Part shown: piece after piece, positions 53,873 to 62,368 of the stretch
How the letters are laid out: each line of letters starts with the position of its first letter
Position numbering within the stretch: the first letter of the stretch is position 1
NCBI GenBank assembly: GCA_965237955.1
Contig: OZ250169.1
Coordinates: forward strand, 6,368,001-6,432,000
Direction: 5' to 3'
Length of the DNA: 64,000 bases
Source of the DNA: Candidatus Marinacidobacterales bacterium
GTDB lineage: Bacteria; Acidobacteriota; Vicinamibacteria; Marinacidobacterales; SMYC01
Position numbers and translations under genes: made by a program
Notes under the pieces: generated by a model
What the model was told of the DNA's origin: nothing
The model's database searches: none
What the model saw: only the letters and a program-made list of their open reading frames with translations

Positions 53873-55073
53873 GGTGCTTCCGCCATCAACTGTTACTCAG
53901 GCCGCCAGAAGCTCGTCCACGATCGGGGTGGTCGGCAGCCGGCTCGGCACGGCGTACGTGATCGCGCCGATGCTTACTAATAAAGATGGCGGCAGACACA
54001 CGAATACCTTGCGGAAAGTGAGTCGCCGGGTGGCGAGTTCGGCCTGCATCGCCGGAGTCCGGGTCTCACGCCCGAACTTCAGAGCGCCGTGCGGGCGGAC
54101 GAAGTTGTAATGACAACGCAGCAGCTCGAGATGTCTTCGAGCTTCTCCTCCGAGCGAGCATGGGAGAGCGTTCGCCGGGACAGATAGGCCGAGCCCTGTC
54201 GGATGGTCAGATTCATCCGTTCAATGAACGACGTGTTCAATGTCGACGAGTCCTCCGAGTTATTGAGCACTTCTTCGAACCGCCACGACGCTCCCATCAT
54301 CTCTCTTCGTTCGACCTTCACGATACGATCGTTTCTTCGCGTCTTGAGCACCTGGCCGTACAGAGCCGCTGGACCAAAGACGCGACGGACTCCGTGACGC
54401 TCTTCTCATAGAAATCGAATCCGTCGGTGACGATCAAGGGAAGACGCTCGAAATCCATCCGGTTCGCGACGTCGCGCAGTAGAGCGAGCGCGCTTCGTGT
54501 TTCGGTAGCTTCGTCTTCCAGTCACTGTCGATGGCCAGAGCCGCGACCAAACCTCGATCGCGACGAATATCCACGTTGGCCGCGTCTTGCCGCCGGCGAA
54601 GGAGCGAATCTCGTCCGCCTGCAGCTCCTCGACGCCGAATTCGGCAGTCCGTCTCTGGTTGAAGCCACGGCAAACGTCGGCGGCTTTCTCAAGCCATCGA
54701 GCGACGGTGTTCCAGGCAAGCCCTTCGATCCGAGCAATCGCGTAAATGCTGACACCTTCGACTCTGAGAGCGACCACTGCGTCGAAAGTCGCCCTTCGAT
54801 GGAGAGTGTGCCTTTCGTCGAAGAGAACGTCTTTTCGCACTCGACGCACCGGTAGCGACGGCGTTTCCCGGATCTCGTCCGGTAGAATCCGTGCCGAACA
54901 ACGTTCCCGGAGCCGACTTTTTCATGCGGACGACATTCGGGGTTGAGACAGCTCGGACTTTTCACTCGCGTGGGCCTTGTCGACGAAAGAACTACGTCCG
55001 TCGAAATCAGGCGCAAACTCTAGCACGCAGACTGTTTAGGGCCTGCCCACCAACACTTGATTGCGGAAGCACC
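53873..55073 (-). mobile_element. IS1-family-like element, degraded
   Basis: IRs GGTGCTTCCGC; zinc ribbon CLNPEC...RYRCVEC, QADEIRSF, NTSFIERMNLTIR in several frames. Confidence 0.82.
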
Positions 55074-57445: not shown

Positions 57446-57803
57446 GGTGCTTCCGCGATCAAGTGTTGGTGGGCAGGCCCTAAACAGTCTGCGTGCTAGA
57501 GTTTGCACCTGATTTCGACGGACGTAGTCCTTTCGTCGACAAGGCGCACGCGAGTGAAAAGTCTGATCTGTCTCAACCCCGAATGTCGTTCGCATGAAAA
57601 AGTCGGCTCCGGGAACGTCGTTCGGCACGCCCTACTACCGTCTCCAGCATCGAAGGGCTTTCCGCGAGGTATTCGTGTGTCTGCCGCCATCCTTATTAGT
57701 AAGCATCGGCGCGATCACGTACGCCGTGCCGAGCCGGCTGCCGACCACCCCGATCGTGGACGAGCTTCTGGCGGCCTGAGTAACAGTTGATGGCGGAAGC
57801 ACC
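57446..57803 (+). mobile_element. 358 bp MITE derived from the IS1-like element
   Basis: Same IRs; first ~215 bp and last ~140 bp match the two ends of 53873-55073. Confidence 0.88.
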
Positions 57804-58279
57804 TCGAGAAGATGCAGGAAGCGCTGGACGCCATCGGTTTCTCCGCGCCGTCGAGGAGCTAAGACGGTCTTGTGCTGCCGCTTCGGACGGAGCGCGGTCT
57901 CGGATAGAATCAGGGCAGCCCCCCGCCCTGGTCATTGATGAGATTTCCGCAACCGCTCCTTCTCGTTCTCGCCCTCGCGGTGCCCGTCCATGCGGGGCCT
58001 CAAAATGGGCCCATCGACTACGAGACGGCGCGCCTCGAACGGCGACTCATGGCGGTGCGCACGTACGGAGCCATTCTTCTCGACGGGGCGCTCGAGGAGG
58101 GCGATTGGCGCGAGGCCCCGGTAAGCCAAGGACTTCATCCAAAGAGAGCCCCGGGAGGGGGAGCCCGCCACTTTCGATACCGAGGTCCGGGTTCTCTACG
58201 ACGACCAGAACCTGTATATCGGCGTCGAGGCCTACGACAACGAGCCGGACAAGCTCATCATCCGCGACCTGACCGGAAA

Positions 58280-59664
58280 CTACTTTGCAGCAGCCTCGGG
58301 AGTGAGTGTAAAGCCGAGCTTTTCGGCTGCCTTTCGCAAGCCGTTGATGTGGTTTCGGCGAAAGCGCTCCTCGAAGGCAGATGCACCGATGTCTGTGTAT
58401 TCGTGACCATATTTGAGCATGCGGAAGACGAGCTGAGCGAGCTTTCTTGCGGTGGCAAAGATCGCGGTTTTAGCGTCTTTACGTCGGGCGATGCGGCGAT
58501 AGTAAGCACCAAGTGCGGTCTTCGAACGGTTGAGTGACAATGCAGCCATGCGTAAGGCACCGGCGATACGGTTGGAGCCGGTGCCATTGGGGCGTTTGTA
58601 GAGTAGCTTTCCACCCGAGATGGGGCGGCGCGGCGCAAGACGGAGCCACGAGACAAAGTGATTTTCACTGGGGAAGGCAGAGAGGTCGAACCCGACCTCG
58701 GTGAGTAGGATCGCGGCGGTATCGGGGCTGATGCCGTCGATGCGGGTGAGATCGCATCCAGCAAAACGCCACAGTTCGGTTCGCTGTTCCTGCTCGCCGC
58801 GGCGCCGCATGGCGCTTTGCTTGTTCGGGTTCGGATGAGCGGGCACACTGTCGTGTCTGCGCTCGGTCGGCTGAAGCTCGATGACCACTTCACGGATAGA
58901 CGCTGGTCGTAGAGTTCGATTTCGGCTTGTAGCACATCGTAAAGGCGCAGCGCCGATGCGAGATTGAAAAGATGCTCGTCACGCCAAGTGCCGGTGAGAT
59001 GCTCTGCGATTTCGTCTACGCTTTTCTTGCATCGATGATCTCGAAACTCGGCGAGCTTCATCGGGTCACGTTCGCCAGAAACGATGGCACGAACGATGAG
59101 CATTCCGGTCTTACCGGTAATGTCGGTCACCGCACGGTGGACTTGCACGTTCATCTGGTCCAGAGCCTTCTGCATCCATTGGACGGCTTGGCCCCGATGC
59201 TCGATTAGTTCTTGACGCTGCCGGTGCATCGAGCGTAATCGGCAAATCGACTCCCCCGGGCGAAACGAGCCACGCAGAAGTCCGCAGCTGTGTAACGTCT
59301 GCAGCCATTGACAATCTTGCATATCGGTTTTGCGACCCGGAACGTTCTTCAGCTGCCGAGCGTTGACAAGAACGACCTCGATACCACGGGATTCGAGCAA
59401 CTCATAAACCGGAATCCAATAGACGTGGGTGCTTTCCATCGCCACCGACTCCACACCTTGCTCGATAAGCCAATCCGCAAGCTCAACCAGCGCCGGCGTT
59501 GTCGTGGAAAACACCCGCACGTTCGGCCGACCATCAGCTAGCTGCGGACCGCAGACCCAATGCTCTCGACTCCCGAGATCGATGCCCGCTACCATCGGTC
59601 GTATCGACGGCAGGGAATTCCGTGAGAGACGCTTCGCCGCTTTGCTCTTCCTTCGTTTGTTCAT
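58280..59664 (-). CDS. IS110 DEDD recombinase, frameshift near 58890
   Basis: GIDLG, MESTHVYW, KTDMQDC; C-terminal ISGGK serine motif, ATARKLA. Confidence 0.92.
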
Positions 59665-59690
59665 TCGCTCACCTCAAGTGTATTTTGTGA

Positions 59691-59849
59691 GCGAAGGCTC
59701 CGGCCCGAGATGGCGATCGAATGGATTCTGACCGTGGGGAGTGCTTTCGTTGGAAGCCTCGCCAATGATAGGGAGCCGGCTCGGACCCAAGCTGACCCTG
59801 GGGCATCATGCACCAATGACAGTACGGGGCTCGCTGCCGGAGCCTTCAC
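59691..59849 (-). ncRNA. Candidate IS110 bridge RNA
   Basis: Closing stem GAAGGCTCCGGC/GCCGGAGCCTTC enclosing two guide-TGG-hairpin-CCA-guide modules that match target and donor. Confidence 0.7.
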
Positions 59850-61870
59850 CGACAACCTTTCTACCAGCTTTGGTAGTTTCCTACTTGATAGGCCCGGCCT
59901 CCGGCCGGGGGCGTAGCTGACCCGTGACTACAACACGCGCTCCGTCGATTCCGTCGCCATCATCCTGGACACGTTCCACGATCGCCGCAACAGCTACACG
60001 TTCGAGACGAATCCGATGGGGGCCAAGTACGACAGTCAGTCTTTCAACGAGGGGCAGGAGTCCAACCACAACTGGGACGGCGTGTGGCACGTTGCCACCC
60101 GCATCGTAGAGACGGGCTGGACGGCGGAGATCGCCATCCCGTTCAAGACCCTGAAGTTCAGCGATGCTCGAGTTCAAACCTGGGGCGTCAACTTCATGCG
60201 CCGGAACCGGCGACTGAACGAGGACAGCTTCTGGTCGCCCATTCCAAGGATCCATACCGCAACCCGCGTTTCGCTCGCCGGGACCCTGGAGGAGATGCGG
60301 GACGTGCGTCCCGGATCGAGTTTCAAGCTCACGCCCTACGTGACCAGCGGCGTCACCGAGAACGAGCAAGCGCTCCGGGAAGGGGATTTCGATGCGGGCC
60401 TCGACGCGAAGATCGGAATCGGCACTGGCCTGACGCTGGACCTGACACTCAATACCGATTTCTCCCAGGTGGAGGCCGATGTGCAGCAGGTGAACCTGAC
60501 GCGGTTCAGCCTCTTCTTTCCCGAGAAACGAGATTTCTTCCTCGAGAACTCGGGCATCTTTCGTTTCGGTCCACCGGAGAGCCCGCGACGGAGGGCCTTT
60601 CGGAGCAGTTTCGGCCTGGCGGCTGGAGGAGGTGTGCGTGGTGGTCAGAGCCGGGGCAACGATTTACTCCTGTTCTTCAGCCGGACGATCGGCCTCTCCG
60701 AAGACGGCGAGCCCATCCCGGTACGCGCGGGAGGACGCCTTACCGGCCGCGCGGGATCCTACCAACTCGGGTTTCTCGGGATCCTGACCGGTGAAGAGAT
60801 GGGCATCTCGACGGGTGACAGCTTCAGCGTCGTGCGGGTGAAGCGAAACGTTTTCGCTAACTCCGACATCGGCGTCATGTTCATCAACCGGGAGACGATG
60901 GACTCTTCTCACTACAACCGGAGCATCGGTGTGGATGGCAACTTCCGTCTCAATCCGGCGATGGACGTCAATGCCTACATTGCCAAAACAGCTACGCCCG
61001 AGCTCGAAGGGGACGACCTCGCCGGCCGCATCGCCTACGCCTTCACCTCGAGGTCGCTGAATTTTTCGGCGTCGTACTCGAGTCTCCAGGACAATTTCAA
61101 CCCGGAAGTCGGCTTCGCGCCGCGGCTCGGCGTTCGGCGTGCGAGGGCCAACGTCCGGTACCGCTACCGTCAGCCCTGGTGGCGGGGCATCGTGCGCGAG
61201 ATCGGCCCCAACCTGGATTTCGACCACTTCACCGACCAGCAGGGCAAGGTGGTGAGCCGTTACGTCAACGTCCGCGTCTCGTTTCGGCTGCAAAGTGGTG
61301 GCATCGTCGCTCTCGGTCGACGTGGCAGCCTCGAGCAGCCCACAGATCCTTTCGAGATCCATCCCACGACGACCATCGAGCCCGGCTTCTACACCTTCGG
61401 CGAGAACTTCTTTACCGTCTTCACCGACCCGAGCCAGCTTCTCTCCAGCAACGTCAGCATCTCATCGGGCGACTTCTACTCCGGAAAGAAACAAACGTAC
61501 AGACTCGGCGGGGCGCTCAAGCTCGGCGGCCGGCTGACCGCGGTGGCCGCCTGGTCGTTCAACGACGTCGACGTCGACGAGGGGGCTTTCACGACGCATC
61601 TCGTCACGACCCGCTTCATCTACGCCTTCAGCACGAGGATGTTCCTGAACGGTCTCGTTCAGTACAACAGCGTCACCGAGGAATGGAGCAGTAACATCCG
61701 GTTCAACTTCATCTACCGCCCGCTTTCCGACTTCTTTCTCGTCTACAACGAAAGTCGGGACGATCGCGGTCAGCGCATCGACCGTGCGCTCATTGCCAAG
61801 TTCACCTACCTGTTCGATTTCTGAGCGGAACCCGGGGGCATTAAAGGGTTGATGGTCCGAGGAGCACACG

Positions 61871-62090
61871 ATGGTTCGTAGAGTCTTCTTTTTCGTCGCG
61901 ACGCTTCTTGCGCTCGCCGAGAGCGTTGCACCGGTGTCCGCCACGGGAGCTCGCGTCTGGCGAATCGAGGAAGCCTCCATCAGCGACATCCATGACGCGA
62001 TGAAACGCGGAAGACTCACGGCTCGAGAGCTGGTGCAGATTTACCTCGAGCGGATCGAAGCCTGCGACAAGCAGGGCCCGTCGCTGAATA
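61871..62090 (+). pseudogene. Amidase N-terminal fragment
   Basis: EEASISDIHDAMKRGRLTARELVQIYLERIEACDKQGPSLN then similarity stops. Confidence 0.8.
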
Positions 62091-62174
62091 CCCCTCTGGT
62101 CAAAAAACTCATGCGGCGTCTCGCTGACCCTCGTGCTCTGCGAGCCCGTGCAGCGTCGCGATGTTCTGGTGATT

Positions 62175-62368
62175 GAGCTCTTCCAGAGCTCGTTTGCCAA
62201 GCTGTTTTCCGATCTCGGCCAAGGTCTCCGCTCACCATCGGTCAGGCGCAAACGCCCCTGCAGCTGATCTCGAAGAATACGATTCTCGGTAACGAGGTAT
62301 TCGTTGCGCAGGAGCAGTTCTCGATCGACCGATCCCGTGATGCACGTCAGCATTGTCTTCCAGTCCAT
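62175..62368 (-). pseudogene. Integrase-core transposase N-terminal fragment
   Basis: ELLLRNEYLVTENRILRDQLQGRLRLTDGERR. Confidence 0.7.

Follow-up and report, generated by a model that had tools for sequence, protein, structure and literature searches.

A branch of IS110 elements whose donor site is likely completed by the folding of a single strand

Introduction

Bridge recombinases are in development for genome editing, while the strandedness of their circular intermediates and the exchange of two strands are openly disputed. A branch of these enzymes that needs a single strand to fold before its donor site is complete would provide a direct test, as it predicts the strand, the fold and the bases involved. 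Here, we ask whether such a branch is represented in a 64,000-nucleotide stretch of DNA (the window) from a Candidatus Marinacidobacterales bacterium (assembly GCA_965237955.1, contig OZ250169.1, positions 6,368,001 to 6,432,000 of the forward strand). The window contains an IS110 element of 1648 bp, delimited by CTGACC on either side (58269-59922), with its transposase gene on the minus strand. A sequence-only reading of this locus had proposed that the donor may be a folded single strand with an inner hairpin and a pre-melted bubble, that both donor guides of the bridge RNA read the same DNA strand, and that the preferred targets may be hairpins as well. Folded single-stranded substrates have an analogy in the IS200/IS605 elements.

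Our results suggest that the antisense strand of the element, excised as a single-stranded circle and folded back on itself, is likely the donor for insertion. The evidence is drawn mainly from the left donor guide, which follows a site inside the element in a large set of relatives.

A left donor guide that reads an internal site

The 260 bases upstream of the transposase gene fold with a long closing stem, and a two-loop bridge RNA with four readable guides is located there, in the left end of the element. The predicted RNA (59685..59855, minus strand) is closed by pairing of 59685-59704 with 59836-59855, presents the target loop before the donor loop, and matches no family in Rfam. The guides, all on the minus strand, are the right donor guide CGGUCAG (59728..59734), the left donor guide CCUAUCA (59766..59772), the right target guide GGGUCAG (59798-59792), which together with the handshake dinucleotide CU (59791-59790) occupies 59790..59798, and the left target guide GUACUGUCA (59817..59825). 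The CU is complementary to 59915-59916.

The right donor guide is complementary in 7/7 positions to the CT core that lies 3' of the transposase, in the right end of the element (58269..58270, plus strand; this is the cleaved 'top' strand, antisense to the transposase), together with the right donor arm GACCG (58271..58275, plus strand). CTGACC is found at 58269 and 59917, and CTGACCG at 58269 and, as the guide, at 59728. The same layout of the right donor arm recurs in homologs, but these were chosen on that match. The left donor guide matches, at 7/7, TGATAGG (59886..59892, plus strand), a heptamer present at 59886 and, as the guide, at 59766. This internal site lies on the strand also read by the right donor guide, about 30 nt inside the left end and past a hairpin, and has TG where a duplex would have AG. 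The ordinary left donor position, a 7-nt tail between hairpin and core (59910..59916, plus strand), is unmatched by the left donor guide.

Homologous loci were gathered from GTDB genomes (36), metagenomes (80), plasmids (8), the host's phylum (30) and the host genome itself (G000; 20). A bridge RNA profile built from 40 close sequences located the RNA in 154 of 164 upstream regions, and all four anchor columns were present in 148 regions; 118 were parsed and 30 dropped (the right end was missing in 13, the left repeat was weak or truncated in 12, the right guide matched weakly in three, and the core was non-AG in two). Filters blind to the left donor guide (right-guide scores of at least 6, a core-to-site distance of 22-42 nt, and one mis-parse removed by hand) kept 96 of the 118, giving 61 element types at 34-100% protein identity with 40 distinct left donor guides (8-mers); one mis-anchored row, L040, was retained. 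Because the filters demand both, the inverted repeat that forms the outer stem and the right-guide matches are not independent results.

Over the 61 types, the left donor guide matches the internal site in 6.18 of 8 positions on average, with 42 types at 6 or more; the permuted mean is 3.42/8, and none of 5000 permutations reaches 6.18. Against the ordinary duplex flank, the same guide is at chance level (2.82/8 vs 2.77 permuted) and no type reaches 6, which means that the bottom-strand pairing beside the core known from IS621 is absent. The internal match exceeds the ordinary one in 58 types, equals it in two and is worse in one. In three bands of protein identity, the internal site scores 7.0, 5.1 and 5.9 of 8, with 0/5000 permutations in each. 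The match peaks in fold register with the core, at 4.93 for offset 0 and 1.3-2.8 for all other offsets. When the whole left end was scanned at 7/8 or better, complementarity of the left guide to the transposase strand was found in one of the 61 types vs 29 for the other strand.

Covariation was tested on a FastTree protein tree, using branch-disjoint pairs of elements with different guides. In this test, 21 of 23 pairs favour each element's own site, with none against and two ties; at a fixed offset, 17 are for, two against and four tied. An earlier paired count of 28/30 was discarded, as its offsets had been picked by the element's own guide and its branches were shared. Three hand-parsed relatives at 31-34% identity (L178, L179 and L180) give 8/9, 7/9 and 5/9 internally vs 2, 3 and 1 at the ordinary position. 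The sequence-only reading had named covariation of the guide with the 7-mer before the inner hairpin as a test. The guide does vary together with the 7-8-mer adjoining that hairpin, and it does not follow the duplex flank; a same-strand donor geometry is strongly supported by this covariation.

The predicted fold of the joined ends

Around the internal site, the two ends of the element contain complementary segments on the plus strand. The right copy of a sub-terminal inverted repeat (GGAAACTAC, 58275..58283), whose GAAAC-like motif is conserved across the clade, would form one arm of an outer stem, and the left-end copy (GTAGTTTCC, 59873..59881), about 35 nt inside the end, would form the other. 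A variable spacer (59882..59885) is the return arm, which would lie unpaired facing the right donor arm. The inner hairpin (59893..59909) adjoins the guide site and consists of a 7-bp G+C stem (CCCGGCC at 59893, GGCCGGG at 59903) with a 3-nt loop. All these strings, like TGATAGG and both copies of CTGACC, were found at the positions at which the sequence-only reading had quoted them.

A Watson-Crick stem of at least 4 bp adjoins the guide site in 44 of the 61 types (shuffled mean 9.0, maximum 20, 1000 shuffles). These stems comprise 32 different arm sequences and leave a tail of 6-9 nt, about the length of the guide duplex; the hairpin holds its position while its sequence varies, as had been anticipated for the stems. 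The inner segments fold at -4.4 kcal/mol on average vs -1.0 and -1.6 in neighbouring windows. The proposed joining of the ends also occurs naturally in the host genome, where a copy abuts the right end of a diverged sibling (L003:1499-1558). This junction is predicted to form both the outer stem and the inner hairpin, at -13.3 kcal/mol (z -2.33, 5/200 shuffles as good), and the exact structure drawn in the sequence-only reading has -13.4 kcal/mol vs an optimum of -14.2. At six loci, the right end is directly joined to the element's own left end. A junction at TATCA|AGTAGG was ruled out, as all copies and the natural end-to-end junctions break at the outer core; the circles of ISPpu9 agree (PMC12288879).

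The bubble is predicted as well, but is only partly open: in the predicted ensemble over 61 junctions, the mean unpaired probability is 0.53 for the core and right arm and 0.64 for the guide site. In the fold register, pairing at bubble positions T to +2 is seen in 15-20%, and in just 3/61 types would the return arm give back a perfect CT/AG duplex core. No consensus sigma-70 promoter was found in 59600-60000 of the integrated end, although this consensus may not be the host's. A terminator or promoter role for the hairpin was set aside, as no consensus site was seen there.

Core, strand and boundaries

The right target guide matches the flank preceding the left end, and in all parsed elements the right donor guide matches the element's 3' end. 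Both matches end in AG on the transposase strand, and in relatives with differing target and donor arms the element starts immediately after this AG; the cleaved CT strand is therefore antisense to the transposase. In the window, the CT core at the left end (59917-59918) and the right target arm GACCC in host DNA (together 59917..59923, plus strand) are complementary to the right target guide at 7/7. The first left-end base (donor position 7), which on the plus strand is the last base of the tail at 59910..59916, varies together with the target-loop base that follows the right target guide in 44 of 61 types (24.9 permuted, 0/10000), in agreement with the handshake pair known from IS621 (PMC11208158). 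At the level of sequence, this handshake covariation confirms the strand and the core. A donor-loop handshake with the target gave no signal (10/60).

The CT core named in the sequence-only reading holds, but 59919-59923, part of which had been counted there as the element's end, is target DNA that happens to equal the donor arm, because homologs with differing arms place the crossover at the CT dinucleotide. In the host genome, the end point (CTGACC) is identical for 7/7 left ends and 7/7 right ends. A contig from the public run X1 represents the empty site: it links 58268 to 59917 with a single CTGACC and omits the 1648 bases, with 6 ambiguous letters. A six-base target duplication is ruled out by this one CTGACC and by the homologs, which narrow the shared core to CT. 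The element thus has the short core common to both ends, and the lack of target duplication, of the IS110 family. A loose end at 59922 in run X4, with a right-end-like start, may blend two contigs and was left unused.

Targets are read as ordinary duplex

The left target guide tracks the ordinary duplex flank (3.64/8 vs 2.64 permuted, 0/5000, n=58, with three perfect 8/8). Across the clade, the target loop reads opposite strands of a duplex target as in IS621, weakly so for the window copy, whose left target guide matches the left flank of this insertion at 2/8. A folded target read on one strand was rejected, as offsets 0-44 upstream of the core give 1.3-2.8/8 with no clear peak. Stems of at least 6 bp occur at 16 of 67 reconstructed targets vs 3.8 expected (related loci included); the host-genome copies were excluded from this count because their flanks resemble the donor arm. 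Palindromic targets therefore appear as a preference of some members and not as part of the pairing. With the target loop reading ordinary duplex DNA, there is no need for a hairpin target, and the idea that such targets are the rule was not borne out.

The closest relatives (L057, L058, L059, L060, L091, L095 and the host-genome sibling at 4904900) are inserted in near-perfect palindromes, and as these centre 7 bases from the core, the same right target arm is found on both strands. Elements L030-L038 are inserted in tandem 7-mer repeats of the TGATCAG/TGGTCAG type. In another subgroup (L137, L140-L143, L150 and L182), the right target guide ends in a run of A, the insertion site is A-rich and the core is non-AG; the sites of the L137 subgroup lie in what we take to be IS3-family transposase genes, on a frameshift signal seen by eye. 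The L137 element is carried by 74 of 5426 Escherichia coli genomes.

The transposase

The transposase gene (58280..59664, minus strand) is frameshifted in the window copy near 58899. This 2-nt frameshift (58898-58900) is common to four of the six full copies in the host genome, the window copy among them, while two copies encode an intact protein of 460 aa; the intact form was also found in run X7. Because four of six full copies carry the identical frameshift, a defective copy has spread, probably moved by intact copies. The protein of the intact copy L006 matches NF033542 at 257.5 bits (cut-off 140), contains both PF01548 (DEDD) and PF02371 (Transposase_20), and has the catalytic motif residues D29, E77, D114, D117 and S349. 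The transposase aligns with those of IS621 and ISCro4 around the catalytic glutamate and serine. The element, which terminates 11 bases past the transposase stop codon, is a member of the IS110 group, but its donor system is not of the IS621 type.

Comparison with known systems

The following comparisons draw on the portions of the cited sources that were available. IS621 and ISCro4 (IS622) share with the window element a DEDD and serine transposase, a two-loop bridge RNA in the left end and a CT core (PMC11208160, PMC11208158, PMC13626964; PDB 8wt6, 9t56), as well as right guides that read the top strand, a left target guide that reads the bottom strand, and handshake pairing (PMC11208158). 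The window element differs in its orientation, which is opposite to that of IS621 (PMC11208158): its top strand is antisense to the transposase, and the right donor arm is therefore found at the 3' end and not, as in IS621, at the left end. The top-strand site that its left donor guide matches is about 30 nt from the end, whereas the left donor guide of IS621 reads the bottom strand next to the core. An asymmetric repeat of about 9 bp takes the place of the 2-3 bp repeat of IS621 and ISCro4, and the protein has 460 aa vs about 330.

The nearest described layout is that of ISPpu9/MITEPpu9 from Pseudomonas putida (PMC12288879, PMC8450116), which has an AG core on the transposase strand and circles that join at AG. 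Its 43-bp A box runs in the order core, 7-nt tail, 5-bp hairpin, 9-mer, spacer and CAAACA, and its 16-bp B box in the order complementary repeat, 5-nt arm and core (PMC12288879 Table S2). The window element has the same layout, with an AG core, a left box of about 43 bp containing an inner palindrome and a right box of about 16 bp. Locus L207, whose B box is identical to that of ISPpu9, is 42% identical to the window transposase. The left guide matches internally at 7/7 in the window element, whereas in ISPpu9-like elements it is ambiguous, at 5/9 both ways. The covered parts of the ISPpu9 paper note the palindrome, map no donor guides and propose no folded donor; its authors suggest a role in integration and report that ISPpu9 makes no junction promoter, and that deleting the flank read by the right target guide had no effect on circles (PMC12288879). 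The handshake pair was dropped as an explanation of the ISPpu9 A2 mutant, since the handshake pair of IS621 hinders excision (PMC13626964).

ISPpu9 itself was not present among the viral contigs and plasmids searched. In 20 Pseudomonas-type loci with the ISPpu9 left-box motif, the hairpin belongs to the optimal fold in 16 (by eye); in eight, one of them doubtful, a right box follows within 330 nt, and a transposase match is present in a single locus. Short elements that have neither transposase nor bridge RNA keep the hairpin, the guide site and the repeat, so dependent elements retain the arrangement. Seven loci (L186, L191, L192, L198, L199, L200 and L204) are short Pseudomonas-type elements, 90-220 nt long, whose left and right boxes are ISPpu9-like. 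Most of them enclose REP-like inverted repeats, up to 49 motif copies occur per genome, and several of the genomes carry them without a matching transposase.

CazIS110-1 and the half-match excision of IS621 resemble the proposed pathway in top-strand copy-out, a single-stranded circle and top-strand-biased integration (10.1101/2025.10.25.684509, 10.64898/2026.08.31.748434). Their donor guides pair ordinarily with the end junctions, and the available parts of these sources describe no folded donor. In ISPpu10, another IS110 element, a DNA stem-loop adds to RNA pairing (10.64898/2026.03.19.712850), but it lies in the target and outside the guide pairing, whereas that of the window element lies in the donor and repositions the guide site. 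The IS1111 group has sub-terminal inverted repeats of similar length (10.1101/2024.04.26.591405; PMC11208160), but its guide RNA is downstream of the transposase, unlike in the window element, in which one repeat is also shifted about 30 nt inward by the hairpin. The integron attC site likewise combines a folded single strand with a duplex partner, one strand exchange and replicative resolution (PMC3458562, PMC4792948, PMC2727003), but through a tyrosine recombinase with protein-only recognition and no guide RNA. The window element encodes a DEDD IS110 transposase, so that it lacks both the tyrosine recombinase and the attC R/L boxes of that system; the two are alike in function only, and reactivity of the folded strand is predicted from geometry.

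In the literature covered, which did not extend to figures or subscription journals, we found no description of a same-strand or fold-back donor, including in the available parts of PMC11208160, 10.1101/2024.04.26.591405, 10.64898/2026.03.19.712850, 10.64898/2026.08.14.744561, PMC8450116 and 10.64898/2026.10.21.760802. The last of these uses 25-nt donor windows, which would cover at most part of the internal site. If the folded donor is real, it would explain why donor-guide searches limited to the duplex flank miss the left donor guide in these elements, and the palindrome at the left end of ISPpu9, so far unexplained, would gain a possible role.

A proposed mechanism and its alternatives

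In the mechanism considered here, the transposase would copy out a circle of the antisense (top) strand. This has been reported for IS621, which excises a single-stranded circle (10.64898/2026.08.31.748434), and for CazIS110-1, which copies out and integrates the top strand, accepts a single-stranded donor and joins the top strand over 1300-fold above the bottom one (10.1101/2025.10.25.684509). For IS621, conversion of the circle to duplex before insertion has been proposed (10.64898/2026.08.31.748434); this clade would keep its circle single-stranded, and the joined ends would fold into outer stem, bubble and inner hairpin. The fold would imitate the opened duplex of the IS621 complex, with the return arm replacing the bottom strand. 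Engineered top-strand mismatches at the corresponding positions improve the reaction of IS621 substrates (PMC13626964). The donor loop would then pair with both sides of the bubble while the target loop binds an ordinary duplex target; the top strands alone would be exchanged at CT, with the handshake pair helping, and replication would finish the insertion, as for integron attC x attI. Replicative resolution is predicted because a second exchange, with the return arm as 'bottom strand', would cap the chromosome arms with hairpins. The result would be an RNA-guided recombinase built for single-stranded cargo, with direction built in.

Several observations speak against this mechanism. The internal match averages just 5.1/8 at 43-52% identity, L183 is ambiguous (4/9 internal and 4/9 ordinary), and the ISPpu9-like L207 and L193 score 5/9 and 6/9 internally with 5/9 each at the ordinary position. 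Just 15 of the 61 inner segments fold better than their dinucleotide shuffles (p 0.05 or better), and about half of the bubble is predicted to be paired, so that 'pre-melted' holds only in a relative sense. In ISPpu9, a hairpin point mutant still made circles with the correct junction, as judged by end-point PCR of excision, and changes next to the core lost the right junction (PMC12288879). For CazIS110-1, a duplex donor was about 20-fold better at one junction (10.1101/2025.10.25.684509). Excision may not need the hairpin: since the ISPpu9 hairpin mutant excised and the left guide of those relatives is ambiguous, excision can probably proceed without the fold, which some members of the clade may lack.

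Three other explanations have to be weighed. The internal site may be an inverted duplex half-site that is bound without cutting, for enzyme loading or transcription control near the left end, while half-matches of the right arm suffice for recombination and the hairpin has an accessory part. An ordinary left half-site is indeed resembled by the guide site, spacer and GAAAC repeat when these are read on the transposase strand; half-match reactions of IS621 are documented (10.64898/2026.08.31.748434), ISPpu9 circles form without an intact hairpin (PMC12288879), seven host-genome sites have a donor-like right arm, and the window's left flank agrees with the left target guide at only 2/8. We nevertheless regard this explanation as unlikely, as the crossover core would have no left guide, given the chance-level ordinary match, and short non-autonomous elements with no promoter to regulate retain the whole arrangement. 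It also does not account for the sequence-varying stem adjoining the site with a 6-9 nt tail, nor for the fold register of site and core. A quite unlikely variant accepts the fold and the same-strand pairing, but as a transient state that the RNA-protein complex imposes on a supercoiled duplex circle or on the integrated end, so that the donor travels as duplex DNA. Covariation shows geometry and not the strandedness of the circle, double-stranded IS110 circles are present in nanopore data (10.64898/2026.08.31.748434), CazIS110-1 used a duplex donor well (10.1101/2025.10.25.684509), and both strands are predicted to fold equally (-12.1 and -12.4 kcal/mol). However, extruding the full cruciform of the 59-nt junction would require about 59 kcal/mol in relaxed duplex, a figure that leaves supercoiling and RNA pairing out of account, and the stems are short (4-7 bp for the inner one) with a large mismatch bubble. 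It is very improbable that the match is inherited or accidental and the left donor guide vestigial. Related elements do share sequence, and matches are weak in some mid-distance members and in ISPpu9-like elements, but the 21 of 23 branch-disjoint pairs that follow their own guide, the significance of every identity band and the 40 distinct guide 8-mers leave this explanation largely refuted by the paired test.

The single-stranded folded donor remains our preferred reading, and a wider one is put forward more tentatively, as a possibility to which we would give somewhat less than even weight: a large IS110 branch may be an RNA-guided counterpart of integrons, whose own DNA is accepted for insertion only as a folded single strand, one strand being exchanged with a duplex target and replication finishing the process. 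It would span relatives whose identity falls from 100% to about 31%, among them plasmid-borne proteobacterial, Streptomyces and Bacillota elements and ISPpu9. Under this wider reading, the hairpin would give insertion a single direction, since duplex DNA cannot contain the full donor site, and the element could jump straight from conjugated or transformed single strands.

Copies and insertion sites in the host genome

The host genome contains six full near-identical copies of the element, one interrupted copy and one diverged sibling. Seven insertion sites have CTGACC-N-G(A/T)(A/G)A(C/G) in common, a pattern derived from those same sites, which occurs at 40 of 3696 CTGACC positions of the genome. 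The sites resemble the element's own right end, and two of them are sibling ends; the one-base difference between the right target and right donor guides may drive such self-targeting. In two tandem arrays (G000:C1 4904900-4912823 and 5050936-5055701), copies are inserted at the right end of siblings, and in both the sibling itself is split by other inserted DNA, of about 4.6 kb and 1.4 kb. Stray left-end motifs in the host genome are at control level (18 vs 16), and the plasmid and E. coli annotations supplied no ISfinder name. Another multicopy IS110 of this clade, about 45-52% identical, is represented by loci L011-L020 and shares the folded-end layout.

In the window, the insertion splits a gene with DUF5916 in its downstream part. 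This interrupted DUF5916-like gene (57935-61824) has an apparent further 1-nt frameshift near 58124, upstream of the insertion. Short reading frames that resemble transposase remnants by eye lie at 54522-55016, 57503-57790 and 61841-62368, and near-identical starts at 55016 and 57503, also seen by eye, flank a peptidase-like gene.

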